Source: Stramenopiles sp. TOSAG23-6 (Eukaryota). Taken from it: a stretch of 35,938 nucleotides of DNA. The stretch is taken from assembly GCA_900128565.1 (NCBI GenBank), contig LT635942.1, forward strand, positions 1 to 35,938. The letters are read 5' to 3'. Below are positions 1 to 35,938 of this stretch, one piece after another. The position numbers were made by a program, and so were the translations under genes. Below the pieces are notes generated by a model. The model worked only from the letters and a program-made list of their open reading frames with translations, made no database searches and had not been told where the DNA came from. Within the stretch, counting starts at the first letter, position 1. Each line of letters begins with the position of its first letter.

Positions 1-1
1 G

Positions 2-16100: not shown

Positions 16101-19100
16101 GTCAATGGGCTAGCTCTCCACCTTCATGTGTACTAAAGGGCACATTGCCAATAACCCCAGCTGACGATGAAGCACGAATACAATTATTTGGTCAATTTTC
16201 TAATAAATATTGGCGTAGTGACTCGTCCGCTGGAAAATTTGCATGGGGGGGGATGTTCTCTGATTTCGCATGGGAAATTAAGTTTGACTCTTTTACAGGT
16301 TTTCCTCGTAAATTCGGCGTAAATGCACAGGGATTCACTGAAACATTTATATTGCAAGGTCACTTATCAAGTCAAAGTTCTGGGAAAATGTGGCTCAATA
16401 AAGATCTCTTGTGGATTGACCCTGCTAAAATTGCTAAAATTGATCGCGCATCATACACATGGCGCTTTAAAACTCAAGGTGGTAAAGATCTTGTTAATGG
16501 GTCCATCGTTCATTTGTACAGTGAAAGTAATTTCTATCTTCTAAGTAATGCATCTGAAGGAGTTGGAATTACAATGTCTGGATCTGATACAAACACACAT
16601 ACTGTTGCTACGTCTGCTCCAGGAGACTTTTTAAAGAGTTGGAAAATACAAATAGGTGATGCAGTTGCGGGTGATCTTACATCTCAAATTACCCATTCAG
16701 AATTGAATTTTACATCACCAAAGAGAATATGCGACGCTAAATATTTTAGTAGTGAACCAAGCTATATTGATACATGTTGTGTTGGTTCTGGTAAAAATGA
16801 GAAAGTTTGTGGGATTGGGCAAGGATATTGTGTTCATCGTGAACAGAAAGATGATTCTGATTCAGCTGATTCAGTAAAACATACTGGTTGTCAGACTCTA
16901 ACTTCTGGTTCACGGAGAGAATTACAATGTTCAGATGTTGGTAATTGTCCATGGCAACAAAATAATTCATCACCAGGTAGTGCTTGGTATGGGTGTTGTC
17001 ATCGAGATTATGGAAAACTTCTCTGTCAGAATACAAAAAATGTTTGTAAAGCTCGTGAGGGAACAGATCCGGATCCAATAGCATCTGTAATTGATGGCTC
17101 TTTTAATACATCTTGGATCGCAAGTGTTTCTTCAGCCATGGGAAATACTCAGACAACTACTAGATGCTTACTGATTGACCTACCACTGGATAATTTGTAT
17201 GAAATATCAAGAATTCAAGTGTGGCCAGCGCGTAGTTCTGATGTTCACACATTTGGGATGGTTGATGGCTATCACAACATTGGTGTCGGAAAATGTCGAG
17301 ACAAGACTAATACAGTTCCTGTAGTCACTTGGTTCTTTGACTCAGCAGTGAAAAGTGATGGTTCTTCAGTTGCGTGTCGGATGCAATGTGACAAAATTCC
17401 AGAGTGTGCAGGTTATATGACACATTTATCCTCATCGTCTCCTGCTTTATCAAAATGTGCACTTGTAGGTATTAGAACAGATGAAGGATTTGAAGTTGAC
17501 CGTGCTGATTCTCTTAGTGAATATCGCTGTTTTAAAAAGGCAGGTCGTGATGCAGGTGCGTGGAGGTCAGCTACAGCATATAAAAGTGATGGCTTGGGGG
17601 GATGGAATGCATTGATACCATCGAAGAAACTACTTGATTGTACTGCGCCAGATGAATTATCTCATATATCATCCATGTATCCTATTGAACAGATAGAATG
17701 GCTTAATACGAGTACAGTAAAACTATTTTCATCGAATTTTCCTACAGATATGTCGGTAGGCGAATATATTCAGTGCAAGGGTACGAATTCAGGGCTAGAC
17801 TCTTTGGATAGAGTAAAGGTATCTAATATCAATCGGTCTGCGAATTATTTTGTGGTCACTGTTTCATTAAAAACATTCAACAAACGTGAAGTTGTTGGAC
17901 GTTTTCAATTGGTTTCATATTCTGTTCTCAGTGAGAACATGACTCTTTCTACAACAAAGGTGGTTACATCTACGAAAGAATTGAGAGTTGTTGCCGGTTC
18001 TTATATCAAAATTGATACAGAAATCATGAAAGTCACTGGTGTTGTTTCTGATACTGAATTGACTGTTGTCCGATCTCAAACGGGCACAGCTGCTACACAT
18101 CTAAAAGACAAACAGATATATTTGATACCCAAAAGCGCCAATAGACCCCATACAGTGTTTGAGCGATCTAACACTGCGTCTATTGCATCAGGAGTATCCC
18201 AATTAAAATTGTGCTTTAGTAATCCGTGTTTGAAGCAAAACCGAGTTCTGGATGTATTCAAAGTTGGCGAAGTAAAAATATTCGGATGGAATACAGAAAT
18301 AAACCCTACAGATCCTGGAGGTCAGGTTATTTGTGACGATAAAAAATGTAATGAGTGTTCACTTCCAATTGCTTGTTCTGCACTCACAGGTTGTCAATAT
18401 AACCCAACACAAAAATCTTGTATGGAAGTATGTTCAGAAAATACTTGTGGTTCTTGTACTGAAAAGGTAGAATGCGAAAGCCAAGGTTCAGAAGGGAAAT
18501 GTCAGTGGCATGCTCCTCGTGGTACACTTCCAATTTGTCGAAAATCTATTTGTTCAGTGAATAAATGTAATTTATGTGGTGGAAAGTCAGCATGTGAACA
18601 AAGTGGCGGGTGTATATGGGATAATACAAATTCAAAATGCAATGAGCCTGTAAAGGTTCTCACAATAGAAGGAAGTATTTCGTTGAATGGTATTGACCCC
18701 GCATTTTGGACGGAATTAAAATTAGACGAAATTCTCATAGAAACAATTGCAAATTATGCTACAATTCATCCGAAGTCTATAAAGTTAACTAAAACTGTTT
18801 TAGATGCGTTGCCAGACACCAATACGCCTAATTTACCTAGAATTCTCAGTATATTTGAAATTATCAAAACTGATGCGTCAAAAAATTTATATACTTNTGG
18901 TAATGCAGGTGTTGGGATTTCAGGTAAGGGTGGTGAATGTACTTGTCCAGACAATCAAAAATATATTGTAGGTGACATTTATGATAATTGTACTTTGTCG
19001 TGTATTAATAGGAAAGAAAACACTGTTGGTAATGAAGTTTGTGCAGCAAATGGTGGGCGAAAAGATGGAAAAACCGGTTGGTCGGTAGACTGTAATGCAG

Positions 19101-22100
19101 GTGCAGCAAATGTTGTAAAGTTATTGAATGCTATTTCAGTATCTGATAATCGGAAATTTATCAACACATTTAGTCGTTTAATTCTTGCTCGATCATCGTT
19201 ATCAAAAGTTTCTCCTTCGCCAAGTTATACAATCAAACAAGTCAGATTGTTGACTGATTTGCAAAATCAAACGGTTTATCCTCGTGTTGGTCTTACATTT
19301 GAAGATTCGCGTATACAAAATGAATTATGTGATGTGGATTCTTGTGGTAATTGTAATACTAAGGTGGCATGTGCTAGCAAGAATTGTGTATATGAAGAAA
19401 GTGCGGCTGTGTGGGCGAGCTCAGCATATTCTCCAGTGGGTCAAAAAGGTTCTCTTTCTAATGATGCTACATTAATGACTGTCGCGTGCAACTCTGTCAC
19501 TGAAATTGCTTTTAGTGAAAAAATTTGGACAGATCAGTGTAGCCCTTCAAGTTATAGTGCTTGTGTCGCGGCTTCTTCAACGAATGGTTGTGGGATTTCA
19601 TCTTTATTTGTCAATAGGTGTCATGCACGCACTAATGGTGTACAAGCTTCATTAATTGGTTCACCTGCCAATGCTGCAGCTGGTGGATCAACTATTTGTG
19701 CAGACGCTCGTCTTCAAAGTAGTTTCTGTGTTTCCAAATGTTCCGTATCTTCTTGTAGCTCTTGTGTAAATTCAACAGAATGCAGCAATGTCGGGTGTAG
19801 ATGGGTAACACATTTTACTAACAGCACTAGTGGTACTATTATTGAGAGTTGCGAAGCTCCAAATCCTCCATGTAGCGAGGAAAATTGTGATATGTGTAAA
19901 TCCGTTAATGATTGTTCGACTGTATCTGGTTGTGAATGGTTTGATGATGCACCTTATTCTCGCTGTCGTCCTGATCAATGCAAGGGTGATTGTAGTGCTT
20001 GTGTTAGTTTAGTAGCTGCAAGTATTTCAGCTGAAAGTAGATGTAAAGAACGAGAAGTAGGTACAATTGCGTCTTATGAAGAAGGAGTTCGTTGTCATTG
20101 GTATGCACAAGAGTCTACATGTTTAGATGTCTGTAATCCATGGAACTGTGCAGGGTGTACAACAAAAACCGACTGCAATGCAGACACTACGTATTGTACA
20201 TGGAATGATACGAGTAGTACTTGTTTGGCTAGAAGTACTGACTGTGGAATGACGTGTAATGAGGGAGGAAATGGTGTTCTTTGTGTGCCACAAAATTGGG
20301 TATGTGATGGTACATCTGATTGTCCAGTATCAGAATGTGACGAAAGGGCTTGTACTGATGAAGCTTTTGATATATCTAAAGCTAATAACTTGAGTAACGG
20401 TTGTTGTCGTTGGACAACATACCAGATGAAGTGTATGTCAACATGAATTTCATTTTTTTTTTTCGTACCAAATTTTGCAAGTAAAGATTTTTTATTGACC
20501 AATTTTGAATGTTAAATATTTTTCCACAATACATGTAGTGGCAACACATTTGCAAGAGCTCCTGCTGGATATCATATATCTGATGAAGTTTGTGCGGATT
20601 ATTGTTGTACTACTGCAAATTGCAAGGTGTGGCAATGGAAACCTATATTTGGTTGTTTTGTTGGAGATCCTGCAATTTGTGGTGTTGACGAAAAGGGGGA
20701 AACTTCAACGAGTGGTTGGGAAGGTGGATATAAATCAAGTTCATCGTATACTCTACCTGTACCCGCTAGCGCACAAGTTGCGTGTACGAGTTCGCAAGGT
20801 GAATGTGGAGATGGATCATGTTATGAGTTATATGCTCAATGTGATGGCGTTGACGATTGCGATACTGGTGCAGATGAGTCAGATTGTGGCATCAATGAAC
20901 TTGAATTGTCTGCCAGTTGCAGAGGCATAGTTAAAGTGTATCACGGTAATAAATGGGGAACAATTTGTAACGAAGGTTGGACAGCTCTTAGTGCTAAAGT
21001 TGTATGTGCCCAACTTGAGTGTGGTGGAGTGGTAAATCACCAAGATTTGACATTTGGTCTTGGAGAAGGCCAGATTCACTTGAAAAATGTACAATGTAAT
21101 GGACTTGAAAATAATCTATTTGAATGTTTGACTTCAGATATGAATGGTAATCCGTTTAGATGGGGCGCATCTGGGTGTACCCACGAACAAGACGTTGCCA
21201 TCGTTTGTCAAAATGGTGTACAAAAACCTCCAACGTGTGCGCAGTTGGGTGGTCATTCAGAGTGTGATCAAAATGAATATTGTGGTTTTGGTGGAGCATC
21301 TGATCCATCATGCCTTCCACACGAGGAATGTTGTATTTATCAAGATACATTTAACCAGGGAGCTTGCCCTCATGTTTGTGAAGATTTAGGTTGTACAGAA
21401 CATCGAGGTGCCAACGGTTGCAACACCGATCAGTTTTGTAGTACCACTGGGTCTTGTATGAATCTAGATCAATGTTGCTTCTTCAAGTCTGAGGCCGTTG
21501 GTGGTGCCTGTCCTACAGATTGTACAGGTAAAGAGCGTTGCGAAGGGAAATTACAAAGAGAATCCGTGGGTAGTAAATGCGGTGAATGTAGTCCTTCCTA
21601 TTCAGGGCTTCCTGGAATGGGTAACACTTTATGTACATCAGCGATGACCCCGAGTTCATTTTATCCAAATCCAGTATTTGCTCCATTTTCAGCACAATCC
21701 GCAGGGCCCAGATCACGTTTTGCTGTCGCTGATATTAATAATGATACTTTTGATGATATAGTTATTGGTGGTAAAGCTTCGAAAGGTGAACCCTTGGTGT
21801 ATATGGCTTCAACATCTTGTGGGAAATGGTCTGAGAAAACAGGCAACGAAAATCCATTTCAATACTCTTCAGATGGAAAATCAGGGTTAGTTTTAATTGG
21901 AAGTACGACACTTGGTGAAAATCTTTCTCCCTCATTTGTAGACTTTAATGGAGACGGGTTACAAGATTTATTTGTCGGGACTTCAACTACTATTAGATAC
22001 TTAGAAAATATCACTGCTAGTGGAGTGATAAAGTTTAAAGAAAATGTTGATCAAAACCCTTTTAAAAGCAACCTTCCTTCAAATGGGAAAGATTTCTATG

Positions 22101-25100
22101 TTGTATGGGCTGATCTAGATCAAGATGGTGATTATGATGCTACTATAGGGAACGCTGCAGGCGAAATTGTTGTGTACCGTCGTGATAGTGTTAGTACGTT
22201 AACGAAACTTGAGGAGAAAGATGTAATATGCACTGGAAGTAATGTCAAATGTAAAACGTATACTAAAACTGACTGTGAAAAAGATGCTGCTTGTAGTTTA
22301 GTTTCAAACCCAAACGAAAATCCCTTTTTTTCAGCCAGAAATACCCAAGATTTTGCATTTTCCAGTCTAAAGAGCACGACAATTGCATGGACAGATGTAG
22401 ACACAGATGGTGACTTGGATGCTGTTGTTGGAGATCAACTTGGTTCCTTATTCTATTTTGAAAATATTGGAATGAAAGGCTTAATAACTTTTAAAATTGG
22501 TGGTAATGGTACATTTTTTGAAAATGAAGTCATCGTAAGCAATAATGCAGTTGCGACTGTTGAAAAATGGGTTCCGAGTACCCGGAGTCTTCACGTAAAG
22601 TATGATGGTATGGGATTTCTCACATTCGCAAAGGATGTTGCTGTAGTTGGTCCCAGTGGGACATGGACGACTGAAACTTTTGTCAGTACAATACATTTAA
22701 TTGCTCAAATTGGTTCTGTCAATCCTTTCAATGGGATAATGACACTTGAAAATGTGGCTCCTACATGGATTGATATAGATTGTGATTGTGACATGGATTT
22801 GTTAGTCGGTGGTTCTGCATCTGTAGCTACTGGTGCATCATGTGCTAGTGAAGATCCATCAACAAATTATAAATTATTCAAAAACATCGGTGATACAAAA
22901 CCATCTGTAATGGCAAGGCGTGAAGGGAGTTCAAATCCATTCTTTAGTCTACTGAGTGCTCGTATATCATTCAGTGCACCCGCATTTGTTGATATCGATG
23001 ATGATGGCGACTTTGACTGCTTTGTTGGTACAAAAGAAGGATCAATTGAATACTTTGAAAATATAGGTAGTCCGACAAATCCAGTTTTTACTCATCAAAC
23101 AAGCTCGTCTAACAATCCACTGAGTATGATTAGCGATACAAATATTTATTATACATACCCCGCATTCTTTGATATTGATAAGGATGGTGATTTGGATTTA
23201 TTTATTGGAACGGAAAAAGCGGGTATTAAGTTTTATCTAAATGAAGGTACAAAGAAAGTACCGAAATTTCGGTTAGAAGTAAACGATAATCCTTTGAGAA
23301 GTGCAGAAGCAACTCTGACAACACCATTAAAATTTTCTCGAATTGTTTTTGCCGATCTTGACGGTGATGGAGAATCAAGTTTGTTTATCGGTGATTCAAC
23401 TGGAAGTATTCGAAGCTTGAATAAAGTGTATTGGAAATGGGATTATTGTACAATTGGCACTCAAATCCGCCATTCAACAAAAGCAAATGATCTCGGCCAG
23501 CGAGGCATAATTGTTGGTATTTTAGGCTCGAAATTTTCTATAATATTTGAAGGGTCATTAGACCGAATACTTGTATTACACAACACGAAAGCATCTTGTC
23601 AAAATGATGCCAATAGGTCCTGCGTAGTTGTTGCTAAGAATCGGCATCCATGCCTTCCAGATGTAGCCTGTTGGAAAAATGATTTTACAACGAATGCTTA
23701 TTTTGCTGAACATTGCAAAGATTCATGGACGACTGCATCGGCGACTGGAGTACCTTTAATTGATGTCAATGTTGGCTCACTTGCTCAGCCTTCTTTTGTA
23801 GATATTGATGGTGATGGCGACTTGGATGTTTTCCTTGGCATGACGTCATTCTTTGAAAATATTGGATCATCACTGAGTCCAGTGATGGAATATCGTGATG
23901 CTGTGATGCCATTTGGAGCTCTTGATTTTGGCGTTTTTACTAGTATATCCTGGGTTGATATTGATGGGGATAACGACCCTGATGCGTTTGTGGGAGATAG
24001 CGAAGGAAATATTCATTATTTTAAAAATGTCAGAATTACAGACGAAAATATTGAGATTATTAGTGTTGACTTTTTATCGTATTCTTCAACATATGGAGTT
24101 ACCGTATCTCTGAATTGGACTTCTAGCGAAATGGTTGAGAGTAGTACTTCAAAGGCATCTAATTCGCCTCAATATGTTGTCTACTATGCTGACTCTCAGG
24201 ATAAGGCGGGAAAATGTGGGGCTTCAAATAGAAATTGCGGTCGTGTGTTCCCAGGAATGCGGACATCTACGTCAATTTCTGGTTTAGATCCGAATGTGTC
24301 TTATTATTACTCAATTGGTGTATTACAAGCATCCCATGCTGAAAACGGAGCAGTGTATCTTCCTGTTAAACCACCCATTGACTGCAAAAAAAAAAAAAGT
24401 AGAAGATTATCAAATGGTAATCATGGGCGGAGATTATCTAGTGGTGGTGCATCAAAGGTTCTACCTCCTTTACCCCCAGATATAACCAAAGCATATTTTG
24501 TATACAGAGGTCCTGATCCAGACCCCAAAGCAAATGGTTCTTGTTCAGGTAAACTCTCAACATCTATCGTATGTACAACTTTAACCACGAAGGATACATG
24601 TATAGCAATTGATGGTTGTACATTTAGCGATTCTCATTTGGTCGGTGGTAATATTTTATCTATTGATAGTATTAGTGGCAAGGATCCTAATCGGAAACCA
24701 GGATTGTATGAAGTATCTGTGTTTAGTGGTGGAAGCACTAATAGCAAAGGGGCCGTTTTTACAATTAAAATTGACAATGAAAGTGGTAAGGGAGGCGCAG
24801 TAAGCGTTTTCATAAAAAATGCTGGTGTAAAGTATAAGACAAATGATACAATTACTGTTGCCGATTCTCAGTTAGGTGGTCTTGGTGGAGTAGCCTTAAC
24901 ATTTGATGTAGCAACTGTATCCATTGCGCTGGTGGCATCTGGTGTTGTCAGTGCCGGTGAACCTTCCTGTTGTGCGGCAACTACTTCATATTGTTTTTCG
25001 GGATCTTCATGTGTTCCACCAAATACAGGAATGCCTAATAATATCGTCCGCGGTACAACAAAAATAACAGATGTTTGTCCTGCTAAAAAAGTTAATGGAA

Positions 25101-28100
25101 ATGCAACTCTAATGTGTAATAATAAAAAACGAGAATTATTGTTAACGTCGTGTACAGGAACGCCAAAGCCATGTCAACATACAGATTTCCAAAATAATAA
25201 ATCTAGGTGTCCAACCTCAAACGGGTGTGTATACACTGTATCTGGATTTATTGCACAACTTGCGCTTGCTTGGCGAAATGCTAATGCAAAACTTAAATCT
25301 GGTGAAATTCGGTTAGATGTTAAGAACTATCGTGTAAGATGGTCAAAAGATGCTTTGATGAAGTCGAATTCAAAATGTATAGATTTATCAAGTTCTCCTA
25401 CGCCTCCACCATGTGATCAAATTTTTGTCAATTTGGGTAATGCATGTGACAATAGAGAAGGCTGTTCCTGGAATTCCGATGGGTCATGTAAAGGAACGGC
25501 AACCCCATGTTCCGATGCTTCAATGCAAGGTGATAAAAACAAGTGTACAACATTTAATGGCTGTAAGTATATAGAACAAGAGAAAATCACACAGGCGACA
25601 ATACTAACAACAACATCACGTAACCCAGTTACAGCAGATGGTGATTGGTACGTTGACGTTACTCCTTATAGTGTACTTGGGGCAGGAGTACCAACAACTA
25701 TACTAAAAGTACAATGTGGTCCAGGTCAATTTAGACCTTCATCCAATGAATGGCTGAATTTACCATTTAGTTTAATGAATCGAAGCAATGGTTGTGCTCA
25801 TTGTGTTCCTGGCAAGTATCAGAAGAATGCAGGGAAATCATCCTGTTCAATATGTCCGGCAGGGAAGTTTAATCCAGATATTGCATCGACCGACTCTAGT
25901 GCATGTGTTCCGTGCATTGCAAAAACATATTGTCCTGCTGGTTCATCGGAGCAGCTACCTTGCCCAGCAGGATTTTATTGTCCACAACCCAATATTAAAT
26001 CTCTGTGTGCTACAAAGGGTTCAAAGTGCCCGCAAGGTTCTACTCAAGAAGGCACTTGTCCTTCAGGTAGTTTTTGTTCTGATCCAACAAAGCAAAAGAA
26101 ATGTGTTTTAGGCGTTGATGATAAAACAACAAGTGGTGTAGATGAAAGCATAGGTATACATTGCCCTGCTGGTGTAACTGTCCCCATTCAATGTGAAGCT
26201 GGTTACATTTGTTCAAATCCATCAACGAAGGTTAAATGCAATGATGGGTTTTATTGTCCATTAGGATCTATTTCACAGACTAAATGTTTGAAGGGACACT
26301 TTTGTCCTACTCCTCTCGAGCAAAAGGCGTGTACGAGAAACTATTGTGTAAAGATTGATGACAAAGGTAATCAGACAAAAGAACCTCTTATTAAGGATAA
26401 AACTAAATGTATCAGTTCATGTAGTGAGAGTGCAATATCCGTTGAACTCTTATGTAAAAACGTATGTACGAAATCGTGTACTTCAAGTGATGGTACAGGT
26501 GTAACAGAATGTAGTAATGCTAATTTATATTTCACAGGATCTTGTGACAATCCAAAATCTGCAGATATCAAAGATTCATGTGGTCATTGTAGCGTTGCTG
26601 TTAAAAAGACGAATACAGAATGTTCAGATGTAAAAGGAATTTGGACTGCAGGTGTATGGACAGAATCTACAAAAGAAACCGTGGATGCTGAAGTTAATTG
26701 TAAAAATGCCCACTCATCTTGTATATATGTAGGTCCACCAGTTGGCTCGCAGGAGGTTTGCTCGAAAGGTGATCATACAAAGACAGGAATATGTTTACCA
26801 AATTCACCGACTAATTGCTACAAAACAAGCCAGAGTGCTTGTACAAATGTTGCAGGATGTGTATGGAAAACAAAAGTACAATGTGCGGCACAAGATTCTT
26901 CGTGTTGTTTACATAATTGTACTGACGTTGCACAGACATCAACTTCATGTGGGAAGATCTCAGGTTGTAGCTGGAAAAATTTGGCATGGACTCCACGTCA
27001 GTGGACGAATCATTTATGGATAGAGGCAACATTATGCGAAGCTGGTTATACACAGCAAATTATATGCCCAGCTGGCTATTCTTGTCCCACCGTATCATCA
27101 AAAACTGCATGTCCAGCGGGAACTTTTTGTGAAGCTGGCTCTAGTAATCCAGTAGAATGTCCCGCGGAGTTCTATTGTCCTCGAAGTGATACGCAACAGT
27201 TATGGGGTTTAACGAAACGCCCTTGTGTCGTAGAATTGCATCATTGTCCTCCTAAATCTGTGACAGCAAACATTTGTCTTGCATCTGCTTGGTGTCCAGT
27301 ACCTAGTAAACAAGAAACAATAACAGTAAAAGTTATAGGTACTGTACGTGGATATGATGTAACATCTGGCCTTCGATATCAAAATGCTATCATTGATCCC
27401 ACTGTAGCTCCCACAAATTACGGTAGTGATACAAACACAAGAAAACTTTCTACAAACACAAGAAAACTTTCTACTCGAGACTGTTTAAGCCCTGGCCAAT
27501 GTGAATTGTTTGACAATACGCCTTGGGATAGTGGTGGTGTAATTCCAATCTGGGTAGAACTTTCCCCAAATGAATTAAAAGGATTAGATAAAGGCACACG
27601 GTTTACAAATAGACATATAGTAACTTGTGAAATTCATACTACGAATACTGCTAATGTACAGCTCGAAGGTGCTCAAATTGAAATAAATCCGTCCAATGGA
27701 ATTGGAGTTTTTAGTAATTTCAAAATTATTATGCCTCCTGGAGGAACTGCAACTATGTATATCTCATGTACTTCAGTCCCTAATGTTCGCGTATCACCAC
27801 TCAATGAATATCCTATTGATGGATTTATGAAAGGTATAGTTGATAATCTAAAGGTAGGAGAAGGTCAATCTGAAACTAATTTCTACAAAACAATTGCACC
27901 AAAAAGATATTTTTCGGTAAAACTTCGCCCGTGTACGTTTTTCATCATTCATTTCAATTTTAGGTGTTTCATAGAAAATTCCATATTTAACAAAGTCTAA
28001 TTTCTAATTTCACATATTTTTTCACAATACATGTGTTCGAGGGGAAACCATTGTTGAAAATATTTGTACAAAATGTGTTTCTGGGAAATATTCCTGGGGA

Positions 28101-31100
28101 TTTCCTGTCATTGCGCCTCCAGCTTCAGATGCAACGATTTGTTTGGACTGTCCAAATCCTGGTGGTTATTGTCCTGGCGGTGATGTTATTGTTGCACAGA
28201 AAGACTATGTATTTTTTTATCATTCATTTCATTTGTTTTTTCATACGAAATTTTGTACCTAACAATTTAATTTTGCGACATATTTTTCAATATACATTGG
28301 AGATCGGGTAAGAATTCAACTTCTTTCTACTCGTGTTTTAATGATTTTGAATGTCAAGGACACACTAAAGATACTGATAATAGCATGTACACTAGTGCGA
28401 ACTTCACCATGCTAGAAGGATGCAGTGAAGGACATGGTGGTATTCTTTGCTCTGTTTGTATTGATGGTTATGTCATGGCACCTGATGAAACGTGTCACAC
28501 ATGTCCTCCGCGTGAATACACTGCAATATTATTTATTATTGTAATAGGGGCTATAATACTCTTTTTACTTAATTTGTGTTATTTTACTCGTAAACCAGAA
28601 AATGGACCTGACTATGAACATTTGCGCCAGCCTGTGGTGTCACCTGGCACTGCAAGGAGAATGACGGCTCATCATTTAAAAACGAAGTCAACCACTCGTA
28701 TTGCAGACTTAATGCTTAATGCAAAAGTTGATTACAATGCCTTTATTCAGAGAATAGAGGAGGACGATTGCATTACTTCGAGTTCCGATGAAAACGACGA
28801 TGAGCCAAAGTCTGCCGAACTGTTACGTAGAATTCGAATTCGCGACCAAATCGATTCACAAATTGTTGATGTTAATGATATATTCTTTGGTGGTTATATT
28901 GGTGCTTCTGTTGCTGGAAATACTGCACATCGAATGCAAGAATTACAAGTAATGAATAGTCGACAAAGACATCACGCTTCAAAGACTTCAAAAACTTCAA
29001 AGGAAAGAAAAAACTCACTTTCACCAAAAAGAGGTGATTTTGTAGCAAGTAACCACAACCACAACGGGTCAAATATTCAAAATGCATCCAATCTAGGTGC
29101 TGTGAGTTATGGTGTAGGTGAACTTGCCGATTCGAAATCTCGAGTTGCTCTGGAAGATGTTCGAAGATCTATGTTAGATACAGGTTTGGTTGACGCTCAA
29201 GATATTGCAGGAGCAGTTGTTGGCGATGAAGCAGTCCAAGACGTTGTTGGTGCAGATACAGAAGTTGATGCAAAAGAGATTGTCATGGAAAGATTAAGTA
29301 TGGCAATGAAAAGTGAAAAGGGAACTGAAATAAAATCTGCTGTGATAAATCGCGTCGGTGCTGGCTCGGGTGCTGGGGAGGAAAAATCAGCACTTAGTCA
29401 AGCATTTGAGGATGCTACGTCCGGTGCACTTGATACTGGCTTGGTTGACGTTGAAGATATGGCAGGAGTTGTTGTGGGTGAAGATACAGTGGAGGATATT
29501 GTTGGAGCGGATACAGAAGCGGATGCAAAGGAAATTGTTGCAGAAAGATTAAAAGCTGCAGTGGAAAGTGAAAAGGCAGATGAAATGAAAGAAGCAATTC
29601 GTGGGGCAGCTGAAACCAAGAGTGGCGGACCATCTGATGAGCCTATAAAACAAAACAATAATGATTCACTACCAGGTGATGATGATGGAAATTTTTCAGA
29701 TCTTGACATGGAAGCACTAAATGCTCAAATCAATGAACTTGCTGAGGAAGAATTTTTATACGGTGCAAATGAAGCAGGNGAGGCNGCAATGGTTGAAGCG
29801 AAATCGGAGTTAGCAAAAATGAAGGGTATATTAAGCGATGCTGATGAGTATTGGACTTCAATCATTGCAAAAACAAAGATTCTCATTGGTTATTTACAAA
29901 TTGTGTCACAATTCCGTTTTGTATTGGATGCACGTTTTCATTTTAATTTTTTATCTAAATTTTGTTTTCGTACGACATTTTGTACCTAACAAATTTTGAA
30001 ATTGTTTTTGAAATATTTTTTCACAATATATGTACCTTGGCCAAATTTATATACTGGTTGGATGAATTTACTTGACGCATTAAATCTGGATTTAATTGAC
30101 ATTTTCGGAAATATCAATGTTTGTCAATTGTCCGTACCATTTACCGAAAAATTTATATTTATAATTCTATTTTTTCCAATTACAATACTACTGCTCTTAC
30201 TTGCACGAGCGTCTGCATTTGGATGCCGTGCGACCAAAATATATTTTGGCAAACAAGCACAATTCTTCAAGTTTAGTGTTACAGATAAGTTTTTCAAAAT
30301 TACAAATTTGATATACTTTTTACTTTATCCTTCGGTAGCATCTAAAACATTTATGGTGTATAAATGTGAAGAAGTTGGTGGTGTCGAATATCTCCGACGT
30401 CAAATGAATGTAACATGTAGTTGGGACCCTAAAAAAAGTCATTGGGCATACTTAGGTATGGCAGCAATAATTTTTGGCATTGGCTATTTAATTGTAATTC
30501 CTATTTGTTACATTTTTCTATTATACCGAAATCGCCAAATTTTAGCACACCCTCATGATGCACCTCATAAAGTTCCAGGCCTCTTAGAAGACGAAGAAGT
30601 AATGCGACGATACAGAAAACGCCTCAGTCGTTTTGGAAATGTATTTAGTCCATATACATATGGTTACTGGTGGTTTGAATGGTTTACACTACTTCGAAAA
30701 CTTATGCTTACAGGTGGTCTTGTTTTGGTTTCCGAGGGAAGTGCCGCGCGGATTAGTTTAGGTCTGGTAATTAGTTTCTTCTATCTTGTTGTAAGTGCAA
30801 ATATTGCACCATTTTACGATCCTTATGATGATATGCTTAGTCAATTAGCATCGATATTGCTTTTTTTGACATTGTTATGTGGACTCGTCTTAAAGATGGA
30901 TTTTGCTGAGGAAGGTAGGTATGAAAATTCTGTAATTGATGCGGTATTGATGATAATGAATATCGGAATTGTACTTGTTGGCATTTTTATTCTTATCATG
31001 GCAATACCACCTTTACGGCGACGTATTGAAGATTTTATTCACCGCCGTAAAGTGGAAAGGAAAAGGAGAATAACATTTGCTGGTCGTAAATTTGTTCGGA

Positions 31101-31555
31101 AAGTCCCCTCAAAATGGGATTTAGCAAAAAAGGCTGAAGAGGAGAGAGAAATTGACGAAAAATTTGGATTGAAGCGAAGTTCTACTCGTGCTATTCCGAT
31201 ATCACCTCAAGTATTAGAATTAAAGCAATTAAATGATAGCAGTTTCNATTCGTCTGATTCAGATGGGAGTCAAAATCAGCTTCATTTACTTCGTCGGAGT
31301 CAGAGGCACAAGTCAATTATCCGCAGAAATAGATTAAATAGCCCCGTACAATCTAAGAAACACACACGTCGTGATTTAGGTTGGTCATCTGGAGTATTTA
31401 GATCAAAGAAAGAACGTTCTGAATTTGAAATGATCACATTGGATTCAGATGGAAATGATTTGAATTCTCCTGAGCCACTTTTAAGAACGAAACGATTAAT
31501 GAAAACTAAAAGTTTTATGCGACCAAATATTTTAAAGGATGACGATAAAATATGA
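2..31555 (+). CDS. Giant multidomain cysteine-rich cell-surface/receptor-like protein, 5'-partial, about 10,400 aa or more. Joined model: ~2-1116, ~1121-2562, ~2563-6841, ~6843-20432 (three +1 breaks), then exons 20535-27932, 28033-28208, 28298-29929, 30032-31555
   Basis: Consecutive same-strand ORFs with continuous domain content. The frame is open from position 2 (KECSNQSILKG). Domains recognisable by motif: many PAN/apple, F5/8C-like, PA14, LamG, EF-hand, C-type lectin, Sushi, PSI-like, LDLa, SRCR, FG-GAP, FN3, GCC2/GCC3 repeats and C-terminal TM helices. Only the last piece has a plausible end (TGA 31553-31555 followed by AT-rich UTR). Confidence 0.8.
1071..2567 (+). CDS. Giant gene segment 2 (F5/8C-like domain with ShK-like insert, PAN, start of PA14)
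   Basis: EYVQASF...IAVQYS...W...F..PVSSKHFRI discoidin-like pattern; CIDHCDSNQMCAGVSYNYDEGKCY PAN motif. Confidence 0.75.
   Translation: MENFLSVTKFVKRRHACTNPKTYVNIETGECSDNGNVWNKKRCCDTKTCSVSMLNSENLDAIASVLVRFNIDSIDDDDKPTFGTTTGTKIERSSGDLESSCNASKEKCADPLFRTKCAASCCENEDAGEYVQASFESERLVGSISVAILSSSWKCDETNQIAVQYSNEGLPSSTWITVATLASRLSKLSNSGDSRKTTVVFKTPVSSKHFRIFMTATPIGCPPSHPYAIAWKSTSKARCYEKNDQYSEVCRYTGSSPAPKGTTWADNQVTCPPSQHIDSIKLKLGSMVFLPPGEASRNVLYKRFVTIELKNSIKLTRKDIVEQTLSGASGVVVHSRTGTIHYLELLGRAEFIPTLNISVSGVDKGEIVFVVNDCGHDQVLLPKTASMNVSCDAISQCIDHCDSNQMCAGVSYNYDEGKCYIRTSVNDGSSIIHRSPIFSTTPCPEGTFYGEYYQSNNLSGSIDWAGCEDKHNEKTRQSVNYMKISSSGVTCGGTALKM
2560..6876 (+). CDS. Giant gene segment 3 (PA14, multiple PAN, CBM6/35-like, phage-like repeat); frame open from 2560, upstream of the listed 2737 start
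   Basis: 2560-2736 translates KCNYFSYDTNKSCDLFKEC... without a stop; PA14 motif YKFIVQADDGSRLWLDGKIIHDQW...HTIKVEMQEYGG. Confidence 0.8.
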   Translation, partial: KCNYFSYDTNKSCDLFKECRSRDWKKFSGTYLYFLGGIYYRDNYTERSFSNHVLSGHKYLNKFSVCYTGDMMIESGVYKFIVQADDGSRLWLDGKIIHDQWNRCCRTWTTYGIEIVGGMHTIKVEMQEYGGRAYINFKWEPDTSQKNSSVNVQSDPFQCFAKRSHNVNIHTSTRESWEPVFASIPQDCQSSGGCANGQIAAVKWIESDTGYKDLAILNEQQLSLEKCKEACYKRGIKSGCKGISYHKKGWGCILESFTVDDTNEKPSTKATCKQISGVLCTSAGANKTTCTSLGSGCSYDDKNSSCINSCTGHTDKTSCENASKNCFFYAAGDIKTLVISVVTGNTINNTVVSLIASQNGRLDEEIVSGTFDSTGYADLNKSSYTNLQNGTSSLVALVNDTDVIEVVGAGKQELNGIYIRDSSTSYKLETDLGLNYYIQESNNHWQLVKKNAGKVTNIFYFAERAKIPHDVRLPPESGWSKNGINGIADGEGDWPAPRLIHEILTSKQNVDIDVISHWVHCGTEHSAETCNCPGGYVRYGAFNRSPVCASKTSIDSSDCVSKFGKQDCPCIYVEKSVRCNNGTFGDPWGGIGKTCQCNTSHLLSADFYFLVSDNVPEAAGKSCAVGSVISTTTSYSLVGQCAVLCRNTKDCRYFVFSGNVGSKACSLFSSCPQNEWYTPGYPNTKMYRLKSELEVKSLTCEYPFDVATSAGRRLTRISDGVCNGVPVKTVKDTSITACESECVNTNNCVTISFCPKESVLCTGNHAGLCNLYLANQCSFVDFVTVGNSGYVTFSMDKSKEDVTPTKLYDLYTGNGAVAFSGVDDQNLNFVVSVPSELCTTGTTATTVDSGTVCCSSTCGNKISTIRCSGSNYTPGTYSGIKAKDVQSSTNGTKASFDITVDKDGNISVCEINNAGIGYEKNDVIQFETNNIGTSGGRDEVTVTSVAGICSQDSTCSTLIGGANSCCPTTIKNNNVECTTSTQSSCVLPQSYNNCGGEGIKNITFRSLVSTNAKISLQVQVNGVTLPKPITAKPAPVGTLNEGDLSWESLMIKGTLRVGTNTISVKIDPSTLFSSDAIAGKLDGQAFETKTNTRLLHCMKACREKANCMSINHSDDNKCELNNQVIGKCNTCNKYSTEGWSYYAKYPTGIAIDSVVISGWPSDLPRPDFQNTFTKFSQSRWIIKRLLAPTGGDALQTGTLSVLKQKCVSNYFNSKVCTSISCDMKTKDSALVLDIDDCTAWYGVKEWVKSDLVISFVLRYSEDFFEPFEGNGKCSGSNDDQVQLTPYYVLPAPERSLDECKEVCLQYELCVGISYADFADVSGTPAICEIAILELDTGKPPDEIEGLPLFGAQSFMTGSSGSNSCSKGTKTDKSGDYSKFQAYRLCSDRNLKLQSDLTPETEHLCSTSEKARKSCFPLTGASYNAPKKNKSPIPTFYIN
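6827..20432 (+). CDS. Giant gene segment 4 (LamG, PAN, F5/8C-like, EF-hand, crystallin-like, C-type lectin, Sushi, PSI-like, LDLa), ending at intron A
   Basis: 13.6 kb open frame; WHHIGATYDG..KLYANG (LamG); DSNASGTLSQDE (EF-hand); YIGL...WKWGD...Y.YW (CTLD); YVCDNDYILSG...TCGVDGQW...PSC (Sushi); CVPQNWVCDGTSDC (LDLa). Confidence 0.85.
20433..20534 (+). other. Non-canonical intron A (GTATGT...AATACAT, 102 nt)
   Basis: T-rich, contains an in-frame stop; removal gives ATG AAG TGT AGT GGC (MKCSGNTF...) and joins the 4539-aa and 2457-aa ORFs in frame; family motifs TTTCGTACC and AAATATTTTTCCACAATACAT. Confidence 0.85.
20535..27932 (+). CDS. Giant gene exon (PAN, LDLa, SRCR, FG-GAP/VCBS propeller repeats, FN3, GCC2/GCC3 Cys repeats)
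   Basis: CDGVDDCDTGADESDC (LDLa); GIVKVYHGNKWGTICNEGW...VVCAQLEC...CTHEQDVAIVC (SRCR); many P.F.DxDxDGDxD repeats; CPAG(F/Y)xC repeats. Confidence 0.85.
27430..27474 (+). repeat. Perfect 21-bp tandem duplication (TNTRKLS x2)
   Basis: tacaaacacaagaaaactttc twice, followed by tac. Confidence 0.95.
27933..28032 (+). other. Non-canonical intron B (GTACGT...AATACAT, 100 nt)
   Basis: Removal gives KLRP-CVRGETIVENICTKCVSGKYSW; ends ATATTTTTTCACAATACAT like the other copies. Confidence 0.85.
28033..28208 (+). CDS. Giant gene internal exon (Cys-rich juxtamembrane repeat), in a frame different from the listed 28033..28311 ORF
   Basis: Translates (C)VRGETIVENICTKCVSGKYSWGF...CLDCPNPGGYCPGGDVIVAQKDY. 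Confidence 0.85.
28209..28297 (+). other. Non-canonical intron C (GTATTT...TATACAT, 89 nt)
   Basis: Removal restores CPGGDVIVAQKDY-WRS, the C.GG......(G/D)YWR motif of this receptor-like family, and sets the frame of the 28385 ORF; contains TTTCATACGAAATTTTGTACCTAAC. Confidence 0.9.
28298..29929 (+). CDS. Giant gene exon (C.EGH.G.LC..C motif, first TM helix, long cytoplasmic loop, start of the next TM)
   Basis: CSEGHGGILCSVCIDGY; hydrophobic AILFIIVIGAIILFLLNLCYF; KTKILIGYLQIV. Confidence 0.85.
29174..29600 (+). repeat. Diverged internal duplication (two ~57-aa copies, period 255 nt) in the cytoplasmic loop
   Basis: LDTGLVDAQDIAGAVVGDEAVQDVVGADTEVDAKEIVMERL vs LDTGLVDVEDMAGVVVGEDTVEDIVGADTEADAKEIVAERL. 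Confidence 0.9.
29930..30031 (+). other. Non-canonical intron D (GCACGT...AATATAT, 102 nt; GC donor)
   Basis: Removal restores YLQIVSQFRFVLD-VPWP; contains TTTCGTACGACATTTTGTACCTAAC and TTTGAAATATTTTTTCACAATATAT; no AG inside the intron or for over 150 nt downstream. Confidence 0.85.
30032..31555 (+). CDS. Giant gene terminal exon: multi-pass membrane domain and cytoplasmic tail
   Basis: Several hydrophobic helices with FLLYPSV...F..Y.C, YL....V.C, FG.VFSPY...YWWFEW..LLRKL.LTG, PFY...DD.L motifs typical of protist Cys-rich GPCR/TRP-C-like receptors. Confidence 0.85.
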   Translation, partial: VPWPNLYTGWMNLLDALNLDLIDIFGNINVCQLSVPFTEKFIFIILFFPITILLLLLARASAFGCRATKIYFGKQAQFFKFSVTDKFFKITNLIYFLLYPSVASKTFMVYKCEEVGGVEYLRRQMNVTCSWDPKKSHWAYLGMAAIIFGIGYLIVIPICYIFLLYRNRQILAHPHDAPHKVPGLLEDEEVMRRYRKRLSRFGNVFSPYTYGYWWFEWFTLLRKLMLTGGLVLVSEGSAARISLGLVISFFYLVVSANIAPFYDPYDDMLSQLASILLFLTLLCGLVLKMDFAEEGRYENSVIDAVLMIMNIGIVLVGIFILIMAIPPLRRRIEDFIHRRKVERKRRITFAGRKFVRKVPSKWDLAKKAEEEREIDEKFGLKRSSTRAIPISPQVLELKQLNDSSFXSSDSDGSQNQLHLLRRSQRHKSIIRRNRLNSPVQSKKHTRRDLGWSSGVFRSKKERSEFEMITLDSDGNDLNSPEPLLRTKRLMKTKSFMRPNILKDDDKI

Positions 31556-31724: not shown

Positions 31725-33596
31725 TTACAAATCTAAGTGATCTACATCCTGTACATGTATCATTACATTTGAAAACAGGGCATCCTGTAACCCTTCTGAT
31801 AAGTCGTTCTCAAAAATATAGAGATGTTCTACTTTCAAATCCCAATGATAATCTTTAAATTCACCATCAATTTGATTATGCCTTAAATTCAGATGCTCAA
31901 TTTCGTGAGCAAAAAATCCAGCGAAACTTTCCAATTTATTATGAGACAAATTCACGAGTTTGTAAGATTTTATTGGCAATCCATGCACCGTCAGCATATT
32001 AACTCTATAATAGTTATCTGAATCACTGCAAATAATGTTATCCAATTTAGGCAGTGTCGGAAATCCAACAAAATTCTTCATGTGCCCACGGGTTATTTTA
32101 AAAGTATCTAGTTTGTTAAGCAAATTAGGCAAACCAATGAAACTTGAAATTTGTGAATTTTGTATTTCAAGCGAAGTAAGATGTTCCATTTGTTCTGGAA
32201 ATCCGACTAAACTTTTAATCAAGGAACCATCAATTCTCAATGTTTGCAGATGTTGTAATCCTGAAAGTAGAGAAAGTTCACGAAGCCTTTTTCGGGGTAA
32301 GCACATATCGTCAAATTCATATAGACCACCATCAGCACCAAAATATTTACCACCAAAATCCTTAATTAGTTTCGCAACCTTTTTCGATTTCTTGCCAATT
32401 GCAAGACCCATATCTTTCAAGAAATCTTCCTCACTTGATTCAAGTAAGGGTTGAAGATGTCTGAAGAGAGGGCATATTCCACCTTCAAAATGTGGATCAT
32501 CTGCAGCTTTCTCTGAAAATCTCTTGAGCAATACTTTTTTAGACATCACCTCGAGAAGAACCGACGACGCCCTCGAACTTATAAGATAATCACACATATG
32601 AAATAATGTTTTAGAGTCAAATTCCCAAATGAAACTATTGAACAGATCCCCATGTATCTCTTCTTTCGTACTTAATAAATAAGCATGTTCAATCATGCTT
32701 GCTCCAAAACNATGAAAGGACAACGCTTGTTCCTTTAATTTTATCAGGATGTNACGTACATCATCGAATTCCGGATACCTTTCATGACATACATCACTTT
32801 CATATAAATAGTATTGCGCGANTTCCACNGAGATAAAAGGTTGTGCATTTTCTAGTAACCATTTTGCATTTTCCAGATAACGATCTGTATCATCCAGACC
32901 TGCATCNTGTAAAAACAATTTCGCCTTGTCATCATTACCTTTTTGATGTGATAATTTGACCAATTTTTCATTAACACAACGTGTTCCAATATTATTCTCG
33001 AGGTATTTTTCAGGAGGTAGCTGATGCGGATAAACTTTTCTCAAAATAGCCTCAGCGGCAGGCTTAAAAAGTGTCCCCCTTTTATCATCAAAAATATGGA
33101 ACAATCTACTGACACTTTCATCATTGAAGCAAGAAAGCAATATTCTTCTGATATTCACCATACCGAAGAAGTCAGAGGCATTTAGTAAGTTTAAACATGT
33201 CGAAAAATTGCCTTTTGAAGAAAGTAACTGTTTTACCGCTTCGACTGATTCCTTCTCCATCTTTTCTTTTATCTCAAATAAAAATTGAATTGTCTCAGAC
33301 GTTTGTGGTACTGGAATATCCTGTGAACAGTCAAATTCACCGAGTTCAGATAGTTCAGTTACATCCCATGATACCACTACTCGCTTTTCGTCAGAACATA
33401 GGAATGTAACTTTATCATTTTCTGACTCATGTTTTTGTCTTTTGCTGGCGCGAAAAGTACTCTCAGTCCCAGATACATTATCCGCCTCCCCTCGCCAAGA
33501 AGATTGATCAGCTCCTCGCGAGGAATGTATTTGGGAGTAAATGATGGTTGCTGTAAGTAATAGTAGCAACTTCATATTTCGTTTTTTTCCTTGCAT
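31725..33596 (-). CDS. Putative secreted SKP1/BTB-like and leucine-rich repeat protein (start may be Met at 33575); intronless
   Basis: 623-aa ORF; signal-like MKLLLLLTATIIYSQIHSS; KVTFLCSDEKRVVV...IPVP..SETIQFLFE...LLNASDFFGM resembles SKP1/POZ; C-terminal LxxLxLxxNxI repeats. Confidence 0.8.
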   Translation of the reverse strand: MQGKKRNMKLLLLLTATIIYSQIHSSRGADQSSWRGEADNVSGTESTFRASKRQKHESENDKVTFLCSDEKRVVVSWDVTELSELGEFDCSQDIPVPQTSETIQFLFEIKEKMEKESVEAVKQLLSSKGNFSTCLNLLNASDFFGMVNIRRILLSCFNDESVSRLFHIFDDKRGTLFKPAAEAILRKVYPHQLPPEKYLENNIGTRCVNEKLVKLSHQKGNDDKAKLFLXDAGLDDTDRYLENAKWLLENAQPFIXVEXAQYYLYESDVCHERYPEFDDVRXILIKLKEQALSFHXFGASMIEHAYLLSTKEEIHGDLFNSFIWEFDSKTLFHMCDYLISSRASSVLLEVMSKKVLLKRFSEKAADDPHFEGGICPLFRHLQPLLESSEEDFLKDMGLAIGKKSKKVAKLIKDFGGKYFGADGGLYEFDDMCLPRKRLRELSLLSGLQHLQTLRIDGSLIKSLVGFPEQMEHLTSLEIQNSQISSFIGLPNLLNKLDTFKITRGHMKNFVGFPTLPKLDNIICSDSDNYYRVNMLTVHGLPIKSYKLVNLSHNKLESFAGFFAHEIEHLNLRHNQIDGEFKDYHWDLKVEHLYIFENDLSEGLQDALFSNVMIHVQDVDHLDL

Positions 33597-33880
33597 AGAA
33601 CTACTAAGAGGGTAGGTAGACCGTCGGCGTTGCTAAATTTTTTTTAAAATGACGCTGACTCTCGCTCACTCGTAATTACGATTACCCGGTACCAACATTT
33701 TTTGGAGCGCATCAAGCGTTGAATCATGGTACATAGAAAATGCCACAATGTCATTATCTTTTTAATACTGTTTGTTTGGGTTGAACTACACATTGAATAT
33801 TTCTTTTTATATTTCATTTTATTTTCTATACAGTTTGATTCTCTAGCAAGCTACAAAAAAAAAAAACTAACTCCATCAGA

Positions 33881-34150: not shown

Positions 34151-34437
34151 TCTTTAGTTGGAAGACATAAAGCACCCTTTTTTTGATTCCAGATTCTTCA
34201 CTATTTTTGCCTTGTCTCATGAGTCATATTCCTCAGTAACTACTGGAAAAAACCTCAGGTAACCAGGTTCAACAACACGATTTTTTTTTGTTTTTTTGAT
34301 GTTTCTGGCCATCAATTTAAATTAAATTTTAATCAATCACACAATGTCATTCGTTCGTTTGTTGCACATGTGTGTCAATCCACTTTACAAGTACTAACTT
34401 TGAATTGTATTCTTTATAGACTTATTACTCCTTTAAA

Positions 34438-35871
34438 ATGCAACACTTTCTAACTTTCATTGTTTACGCCTCCATCATTCAAGGAACATTTTCATGCACT
34501 AATTATATGGTTACCAGAGGTGCATCAAATGATAATAGTACCATTGTGGCGTACAATTCTGATGGGTTTTCTCTATTTGGGTATCTTAAACACTTGCCAG
34601 CACAAGAATATGTCCCAGGAACTTTACGTGATGTGTATGACTTTACAAGTGGCAAATTTTTGGGTTCAATTCCAGAAGTATCGGCTACGTATAATGTGGT
34701 TGGTAACACAAATTCGGAAGGCCTTTCGATAGCAGAAACAACTTTTGATGGAATCGAAAAACTTGCAGAACCATTTCCTGGATCCATACTTGACTATTAT
34801 TCTTTAATGTGGATCACTCTTCAACGTACAAAAACTGCTCGTGAAGCAATCGCGACTATGGACATTTTAACTAGTAAATATGGATATGCGTCGACCGGAG
34901 AGTCATTTTCAATAGCAGATACGAAAGAAGTTTGGATCATGGAAATGATTGGTCGTGGGTTACATGAAAAAGGTACTGTTTGGGTGGCTAGAAAAATTCC
35001 TAATGGCGCCATCTCCGGCCATGCAAATCAGGCACGTATAGAATCCTTTCCTCTCAATTCCACAGATACTCTTTATTCTTCTGATATTTTTGAATTTTCT
35101 AAAAGGAACAATCTCACTGCACAAAATCTACCCAATTCAGAATTTAACTTTGCTCAAACATGTATGCTTTATTTTTTTTTGGTATGAATTTTTTTTTCAT
35201 ACGAAATTTTGTACCTAACATTTTTTTTTTGAAATATTTTTTCAGAATACATTTGACCCTATCACCTCAATTGGTGCACGCGCATGTGACCTTAGGGTAT
35301 GGAATTTTTTTCGTTTAGCTCTAGGCAAACAAAAAGGCAGAAAATTTGCAGATAAATATCTCGAATATGTGAAAGGTTACAATTTAAGTAGACGAATGCC
35401 TCTATGTATGTNGTATTTTTTTTTTAACAAAAAAATCGAATTTATTTTTCGTACGAAAATTTGTACCTAACAAATTTAAGTTTTTTTTTTTTGAAATATT
35501 TTTCAAAAATACATACGTACAAGTTGGTAATAATAAAGTGAGTGTCAATGATACGATGTGGGCGATGAGAGATCGATATCAAAACACGTGGTTTGATCAA
35601 AGTGGTCGTGATAAGCCCGACATTAGTGCAGGGCCATTCCATTCCCTAGTAAGAACAAGACCTTTAGCATTTGAATTGGGACAAAAAAAATATTCATTCG
35701 AAAGGAATGTATGTTTTATTTTTTTTTTTTTTGTATGAATTTATTTTTTATAGTAAATTTTGTACCTAACAAATTTTAGGGTTTTTTTTTTGAAATATTT
35801 TTCCAAAATACATGTTGGTTATCAAGGAACTTTTTTCAACTTTGTTGCCAATAGTCGTGGTCATTTTAAAT
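34438..35871 (+). CDS. Peptidase family C69 (dipeptidase/secernin-like Ntn hydrolase), 3'-partial; exons 34438-35161, 35253-35405, 35515-35708, 35814-35871
   Basis: Signal peptide then nucleophile Cys (TFS-CTNYMVTRGAS); GLSIAETTF, LQRTKTAREAI, YGYASTGESFSIAD..EVWIMEMIG, HANQARI. Spliced continuation FAQTFDPITSIGARACDLRVWNFF...RMPLYV...MRDRYQNTWFD...ERNVGYQGTFFNFVANSR. Confidence 0.92.
35162..35252 (+). other. Non-canonical intron E (GTATGC...AATACAT, 91 nt)
   Basis: Removal gives CAA ACA TTT GAC CCT (QTFDP); using the nearby CAG (35243-35245) gives an immediate TAA. Confidence 0.92.
35406..35514 (+). other. Non-canonical intron F (GTATGT...AATACAT, 109 nt)
   Basis: Removal gives RMPL-YVQVGNNKVSV; full family motifs present. 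Confidence 0.9.
35709..35813 (+). other. Non-canonical intron G (GTATGT...AATACAT, 105 nt)
   Basis: Removal gives FERN-VGYQGTFF; in-frame stop inside; full family motifs present. Confidence 0.9.
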
Positions 35872-35938
35872 GTATGTTTTATGTTTTTTCAAATTCGATT
35901 TTTTTTTCGTACGAAATTTCGTACCTAACGATTTTTTT
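35872..35938 (+). other. Intron H of the same family (5' part; runs off the window)
   Basis: AAAT|GTATGT followed by TTTCGTACGAAATTTCGTACCTAAC. Confidence 0.85.

Follow-up and report, generated by a model that had tools for sequence, protein, structure and literature searches.

Contig LT635942.1 of assembly GCA_900128565.1 (Stramenopiles sp. TOSAG23-6) was analysed along positions 1-35,938 of the forward strand, a stretch of 35,938 nucleotides referred to here as the window, and was found to carry three genes, two of which are interrupted by a set of eight short introns of similar sequence. The first is a giant, surface-protein-like gene on the + strand (1..31555, with open reading frames (ORFs) of up to 4544 aa), as judged from Pfam domains and from the homologue P0144, and it hosts the introns called here A-D. 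A peptidase C69 (dipeptidase) gene, also on the + strand, with exons 1-4 at 34438..35871 (Pfam PF03577, E 1.4e-36), hosts introns E-H; the third gene, a minus-strand ORF, lies between the two and is described further below. Among public sequencing runs, this stretch occurs in several metagenomes and metatranscriptomes from seawater and in three small DNA runs that derive from a single organism, so that the source is taken to be a marine microbial eukaryote. Seven of the introns are complete (89-109 nt) and one is partial, all being found in the sense orientation within coding sequence, and their membership in one family and their orientation are matters of direct observation. On balance, the evidence discussed here favours the view that they form an introner-type family spliced at GY...AT (Y, pyrimidine).

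With coordinates given on the + strand and in the GY..AT register (offset 0), the copies in the giant gene are intron A (20433-20534, 102 nt, GTATGT...ATACAT, direct boundary repeat TGTA, nhmmer E 1.1e-12), intron B (27933-28032, 100 nt, GTACGT...ATACAT, boundary repeat TGT, E 9e-15), intron C (28209-28297, 89 nt, GTATTT...ATACAT, boundary repeat AT, E 6.9e-13) and intron D, which starts with GC and ends with TAT (29930-30031, 102 nt, GCACGT...ATATAT, boundary repeat ATG, E 3.1e-17). The C69 gene contains intron E (35162-35252, 91 nt, GTATGC...ATACAT, boundary repeat ACAT), intron F (35406-35514, 109 nt, GTATGT...ATACAT, boundary repeat AT, E 3.1e-16), intron G (35709-35813, 105 nt, GTATGT...ATACAT, boundary repeat ATGT, E 2.3e-14) and the 5' part of intron H (35872-35938, GTATGT..., E 1.5e-11), which is cut by the end of the window. 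The phases of introns A-H are 1, 1, 0, 0, 1, 1, 0 and 1 (that of H being counted by hand), with phase 2 absent.

The introns are removed exactly, with restoration of the reading frame and of the conserved protein. A contig from polyA RNA (run X11, record 1, 179 nt, with no mismatch or gap) joins position 35157 to 35249, so that 91 nt are missing; because of the ACAT repeat, this join gives the same mRNA as removal of 35162-35252, and removal of intron E between its repeats is proven. The homologues P0001-P0004 align through junctions E, F and G with the intron as the sole gap, passing at junction G from ...ERN directly into VGYQG..., and P0144 aligns through junctions B, C and D without any indel. 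The reading frame is open across the junction in all seven complete introns, and at junction A, where homologue coverage is absent, the open frame (phase 1) alone provides the support. The mapping of contigs from DNA and RNA runs covered positions 32908-35938, with the junctions of introns A-D lying outside this interval, and those stretches of the C69 gene that have no RNA coverage carry no information on splicing.

The sequences at the boundaries were recomputed, and the direct repeats given above for introns A-G are identical to those of the original prediction. Its other counts were reproduced as well: the upstream exons end in RT (R, purine) in 8/8 cases (GT for introns A and B, AT for the other six, including H), the downstream exons start with GT in 4/7 (A, B, D and G), and an ATGTAT/ATACAT inverted repeat is present in 4/7 (C, E, F and G). 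Furthermore, the proposal that T takes the place of the usual G both at exon position -1 and at the final intron base is supported. In the inverted repeat, the last two exon bases with the first four intron bases are set against the last six intron bases, so that in intron C, for example, the 6-nt repeat is formed together with the AT of the exon; among the other copies, the exon-intron sequence of A and B begins with GT and not AT, and in D (GCAC.../...ATAT) only two letters match. By taking the 32,291 coding bases of the window as the chance background, in which the frequency of RT is 0.165, the probability is 5.6e-7 for RT at all eight upstream exon ends, 7e-4 for GT at four of seven downstream starts, and 4.6e-6 for a boundary repeat of at least two letters in 7/7 introns (mean of the null, 0.72 letters). 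Since the inverted repeat belongs to the consensus of the family, its four occurrences amount in effect to one observation and not to four independent ones. In introns A and B the G of exon position -2 falls on a synonymous third codon position, and their deviating exon ends reflect either a silent AT to GT mutation or tolerance of any purine at exon -2. The direct repeats could be explained by the preceding exon ending in RT, as the intron does, and by the following exon often starting with GT, as the intron likewise does. On this view, the two arms of the six-letter inverted repeat would be AT followed by GTAT, and ATAC followed by AT.

The boundary repeats allow the cut to be moved by -1..+3 in intron A, -1..+2 in B, -2..0 in C, -2..+1 in D, -4..0 in E, -2..0 in F and -2..+2 in G, and the only offsets common to all seven are 0 (GY..AT) and -1 (TG..CA). 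With register 0, six introns have GT-AT ends and one has GC-AT, GC being the usual variant of a GT donor; with register -2, four would have AT-AC, two GT-AC and one AT-AT. The terminal pairs open to intron E are AC-AT, CA-TA, AT-AC, TG-CA and GT-AT, GT-AG not being among them, and in none of the introns does a register compatible with RNA or homology give AG, AT being the 3' end in 7/7 at register 0. A GT-AG reading of these introns is therefore impossible, and in this respect they depart from the canonical GY-AG sites of introners. The donors at register 0 are GTATGT in three of the complete copies, GTACGT, GTATTT, GCACGT and GTATGC, and they are good donors for the major spliceosome. A branch-like CCTAAC box is found in five of the seven complete copies, 33-43 nt upstream of the 3' junction, and is followed by a run of T and then by a conserved block that ends in YAT, with an overall T content of 45-58%. 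GY..AT is the sole register common to the seven introns that also has a normal 5' signal. Thus, the good donors, the CCTAAC box and the T run with its YAT block favour removal at GY...AT by the spliceosome. In intron E (35238-35245) a T run is followed by CAG 7 nt before the junction demonstrated by RNA, which is not used there; at the corresponding place, CAC, CAA or CCA is found in the other copies. The unused CAG argues that AG is not the mark of the 3' site in these introns, with the limit that a frameshifted and unstable product of splicing at the CAG would also fit.

That the copies form one repeated family, as had been claimed earlier, is confirmed by a profile search (nhmmer) of the window, which returned exactly eight significant matches, all on the + strand and inside ORFs, with E between 1.5e-11 and 3.1e-17, and by thousands of matching contigs. 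An alignment of the eight copies extends over their full length, with pairwise identities of 73-91% of the aligned columns, and the likeness extends through the spacer segments and across copies from two unrelated genes. Such whole-length likeness of several introns, which are genic, in sense orientation and removed without change of mRNA length, is what characterizes introners. The closest copies, E, F and G (84-91% identity), adjoin in one gene, and their likeness could reflect local spread or gene conversion. Pieces of contigs that match at 90% identity or more number 7,480 in a DNA run from seawater and 1,145 in an RNA run (X5), and fall nearly all on the part of the sequence that bears introns; thousands of metagenome contigs match intron stretches of 30-60 nt at this level. 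In a table of 30 bins, the summed word depth, which does not measure copy number and may contain a contribution from other organisms, is 5,000-85,000 in five of the six bins between 35152 and the end of the window, 7 in bin 35254-35355 and 6 in the intron-free bin 35560-35661; over exon 1 and the sequence preceding it, the depth is about 6 or nil. This shows that the intron family is highly repeated in nature. Among the matches listed, the best-supported left edge is at 35707, at the AT that precedes GT, and the best-supported right edges are at the last T of ATACAT (35813 and 35252), from which it follows that the repeated unit is the intron plus one AT. The richness of the X5 RNA-library contigs in intron-family sequence over 35152-35938, to which the 1,145 pieces belong, points either to transcripts that were not spliced, to excised introns that are stable, or to DNA carried over.

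A 14-letter core pattern of the family occurs at no fewer than 117 loci of metagenome contigs, with no family flanks among the 45 AT-richest matches, which are read as chance matches, the remaining loci being screened only by a crude GTAT/ATACAT test. A 17-letter pattern has 0 loci in viral contigs and five in GTDB, which belong to bacterial metagenome-assembled genomes by record title and were taken, from the titles, as chance matches. Within intron H a perfect palindrome of 16 nt (35910-35925) lies directly 5' of CCTAAC; it is present with G-U pairs or mismatches in the other copies, and it forms a 6-bp hairpin in the structures predicted for D and F. The weak minus-strand matches of nhmmer are due to this internal palindrome of the family.

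The same introns can be read with both cuts placed two bases to the left, as AT...AC introns with a downstream exon that always starts with AT. This register yields the identical mRNA in introns C, D, E, F and G, fits the RNA contig across intron E, and would give a 3' end in TAC, a known YAC acceptor; besides, a first A and a last C pair in a way that works in both types of spliceosome. On the other hand, introns A and B would become GT..AC and D would become AT..AT, that is, three terminal pairs in seven introns against a single GY..AT rule, and cleavage would take place two bases before a perfect GTATGT. U12-type introns have the donor consensus RTATCCTT and a branch box TCCTTAAC at 10-26 nt from the 3' end. 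Here, the donor is GTATGT (or ATGTATGT) with no sign of ATATCC, and no branch box is seen near the 3' end, CCTAAC being 33-43 nt from the junction, so that the AT...AC reading is unlikely. Less probable still is removal outside the spliceosome, as in euglenids and diplonemids, with pairing of the intron ends aligning the junctions and another enzyme carrying out cutting and joining, whose introns typically have short repeats at the boundaries and inverted repeats at the ends too, according to the sections of the sources that deal with them (PMC12621601, PMC6221363). By eye, a 6-bp end stem can be drawn in five of the seven introns if G-U pairs are admitted. When each intron was folded with 10-nt flanks and the stem was scored by a pair probability above 0.5, it was found only in B and E, and the value was near 0 in the other five, with F pairing in a shifted form; RNAalifold, applied to six complete copies plus 8 nt of F, returned no consensus pair. 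The idea that end pairing defines the splice sites, which formed part of the original prediction, is not borne out by these results, and the covariation between 5' and 3' ends that it called for was not detected, there being no double-sided change in the six pairs. On the alignment, 90% of the six end pairs are standard ones and shuffled sequences give values identical to the observed one (intron B being misaligned by two columns); in B and D the variants disrupt end pairs, and three variants turn a pair into G-U. The end complementarity is real, but it is fixed and too weak to fold alone. Moreover, a conserved GT donor able to pair with U1, the branch-like box and the T tract speak against a route independent of the spliceosome.

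Two further explanations concern the nature of the family rather than the cut. The likeness of the introns may stem from strict splice signals, with constraint, local duplication or gene conversion in place of a mobile family, and it is consistent with this possibility that the same ends are found on all eight introns, so that a rule of the species and a trait of a family are inseparable, that the closest copies are the neighbours E, F and G, and that a target duplication is undemonstrable. We consider it improbable, however, since the likeness spans spacers that are implausible as signals and two unrelated genes, and the metagenomic contigs that match at the 90% level are counted in thousands. 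An assembly artefact, or excision from DNA in the manner of the internal eliminated sequences of ciliates instead of RNA splicing, could be suggested by the fragmentary look of the assembly (10 N in the window, one of them at 35412, inside intron F) and by three breaks in the reading frame of the giant gene that lack an explanation. This is very improbable: contigs of an independent seawater DNA run of 2024 (X4, records 11 and 13) continue across the edge from exon into intron, and the joined form 35157-35249 was seen only in polyA RNA, with no instance among the DNA contigs listed, which are the smaller part of the total.

A mobile origin was also part of the original prediction, in the form of a miniature inverted-repeat transposable element (MITE) with terminal inverted repeats (TIRs) and target-site duplications (TSDs). 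Of this proposal, the dispersed and repeated character of the family stands, and makes the origin plausible; the TSD is not demonstrated and the TIR is limited to 6 nt, the TIRs of MITEs being usually at least 10 bp long. Each matching letter of a boundary repeat belongs to an end that is constant in the family (ATACAT or GTATG), no locus-specific letter being duplicated, the register of the repeats varies between copies (-1..+3, -2..+2, -4..0), and beyond exon positions -2 and +2 the match rate, by eye, is 2/7 per position, i.e. that of chance. The same sequence can equally be written as AT[GTAT...ATAC]AT, with a 2-bp duplication, as ATGT[...]ATGT, with a 4-bp duplication and later erosion of the exon copy, or as A[TGTAT...ATACA]T, with no duplication. 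Thus, as far as the arrangement of letters goes, a duplication of 0, 2 (AT) or 4 (ATGT) bp, or else a preference for RT|GT in insertion or selection, would all fit. By the methods of Gozashti et al. 2022, in the portion of that article (PMC9860276) devoted to them, the inverted repeat just reaches the 6-nt criterion and the boundary repeats are of the ambiguous kind.

Several considerations weigh against an introner-type family spliced at GY...AT. The argument from the register presumes one common cut position in every copy, and the boundary repeats leave the RNA and homology data blind between GT..AT, AT..AC, TG..CA and other shifts. The RNA-proven junctions amount to one, that of intron E, from a single contig of depth 3. 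All eight introns seen are members of the family, and hence a family trait and an organism-wide RT|GY..YAT rule are inseparable. AG and AC are the only known 3' sites given in the methods of an introner survey, as far as that section of the source goes (PMC12130899). With respect to mobility, the copies are 9-27% diverged, which implies that their spread is not recent, and the TIR of 6 nt is found in only 4/7 copies, two of its letters being a self-complementary AT. Furthermore, copies in both orientations and outside genes, as expected of MITEs, were not found, no minus-strand or intergenic copy being present in the window, which contains little intergenic DNA and offers a weak test. A mobile-element origin appears reasonable, spread being deduced from similarity only.

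By taking into account these points, the mechanism that we infer is one in which the eight elements would be copies of one short, T-rich, intron-resident repeat of the introner type. Each copy would bring a GTATGT-like donor for the major spliceosome, a CCTAAC box, a T tract and, in the place of the YAG of other eukaryotes, YAT; the spliceosome would accept YAT as the 3' site, and the cut would fall in the GY..AT register and not at a shifted position. The family may have multiplied as a DNA element that inserted at AT or ATGT, the 3' AT being derived from the target or matched to it. A more far-reaching hypothesis, which is put forward tentatively and is itself rather doubtful, is that the 3' rule of the major spliceosome has shifted from YAG to YAU, with the last exon base changed from G to U, and that under this rule a transposon-like family which supplies or targets AT has reached thousands of sites. 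In that case GY...AU would serve as the splice code of the whole lineage, and changes would be predicted in U1 (opposite exon position -1), in U2AF35 and in the active-site contacts of step 2. In a bolder variant, the 3' end AUACAU, the complement of the intron's own 5' site, would substitute for recognition of the U1 type.

Bursts of intron gain are explained chiefly by introns that copy themselves, and to our knowledge nearly all described cases follow GT-AG. If the present interpretation is correct, evolution would be able to change the last intron base across a whole genome, and a new splice rule could be fixed or exploited by a mobile element. Gene finders and introner surveys assume AG, as in the methods section cited above (PMC12130899), and would therefore fragment such genes and miss the family; the C69 and giant genes appear as separate ORFs because an AG-based rule fails on these introns. 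No description of a GT-AT introner family was found in searches of the literature on introners and noncanonical splicing, which does not prove its absence, and the core motif of the family was not found in part of the supplement of PMC9860276.

The remaining features of the locus can be summarized as follows. The giant gene encodes SRCR, LDLa and FG-GAP repeat domains and a TRP-like C-terminal membrane region (Pfam), and its C-terminal ORF matched one protein in EukProt. Its reading frame is interrupted by three further breaks, at 1071-1132, 2560-2567 and 6812-6876, each of which is a +1 frame step devoid of any copy of the intron family, one falling in a C/A homopolymer run. These breaks may be assembly indels or very short introns of another kind; candidate GY..AT or GY..AG introns that would restore the frame are counted in hundreds and are, hence, uninformative. 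In the C69 gene, the protein has a hydrophobic N-terminal stretch followed by a Cys; homologues align with it at 59-64% identity, the closest proteins being at 61-64%, and the best named ones are from Triparma and Prymnesium (54-55%). Clusters of Chlorophyta and Ciliophora obtained from the Atlas are regarded as carrying no information on the lineage. Many bacterial (Bacteroidota-type) dipeptidases, at about 50-55%, are found beside the protist ones among its nearest relatives, which suggests a bacterial-type enzyme family common to marine protists. The minus-strand ORF (31725..33632, 635 codons, with several N and a weak LRR match) has no homologue in a large protein search and contains no copy of the intron family. 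RNA families and tRNAs were searched across the window and none was found.

Among known intron systems, the introners of Micromonas, Aureococcus and others resemble the present family in that many look-alike short introns lie in sense orientation in coding sequence, their removal leaves the mRNA unchanged, and short boundary repeats are present; one splice site may come from the element and the other from the target, according to the portions of the sources that deal with these families (PMC9860276, PMC11282704). Introners as described there have GY-AG ends, in contrast with the 3' AT found in 7/7 introns here, and the inverted repeat is here of only 6 nt. The non-canonical introners of Amoebophrya (Farhat et al. 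2021, PMC7789003) are, as outlined in the relevant passages of that article, those of another marine protist, and share with the present ones the repeated character, the inverted repeats at the ends, direct repeats that overlap the boundaries and ends other than GT-AG, their mode of splicing being given as unknown. However, they have inverted repeats of 8-20 nt, direct repeats of 3-5 nt and variable terminal dinucleotides, and a U1 component is missing in Amoebophrya, whereas in the window the inverted repeat is shorter than 8 nt (6 nt), the direct repeats are of 2-4 nt, the ends are uniformly GY..AT, and an ordinary-looking donor, a branch-like box and a T tract are present. The introns of Fritillaria borealis (Henriet et al. 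2019), as summarized in a passage of PMC11282704, are also transposon-like, with inverted repeats and non-GT-AG ends that include AT among the 3' ends, and are removed by an adapted major spliceosome. They start mostly with AG (AG-AC, AG-AT), unlike the normal GT donor observed here, and Fritillaria is a tunicate, whereas the host of the present introns appears protist-like from its gene content. The nonconventional introns of euglenids and diplonemids, in the parts of PMC6221363 and PMC12621601 concerned with them, similarly carry inverted repeats together with short direct repeats at their junctions, and have been proposed to derive from MITEs; they are characterized by a stable structure at the ends with neither a conserved donor nor a pyrimidine tract; the present introns, on the contrary, have both signals (a conserved donor and 45-58% T), with an end stem that is weak, being predicted in 2/7, and no consensus structure. 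With respect to the AT-AC introns of the U12 and U2 types, five of the seven introns can be read as AT...AC by an mRNA-compatible offset of two bases, with the discrepancies in donor, branch box and the ends of A, B and D set out above. From the introns of Amoebophrya, Fritillaria and euglenozoans the present ones are set apart by a normal donor, a branch-like box, a T tract and uniform ends. Overall, these elements behave as introners do, and yet they break the GY-AG feature that the described families have in common.

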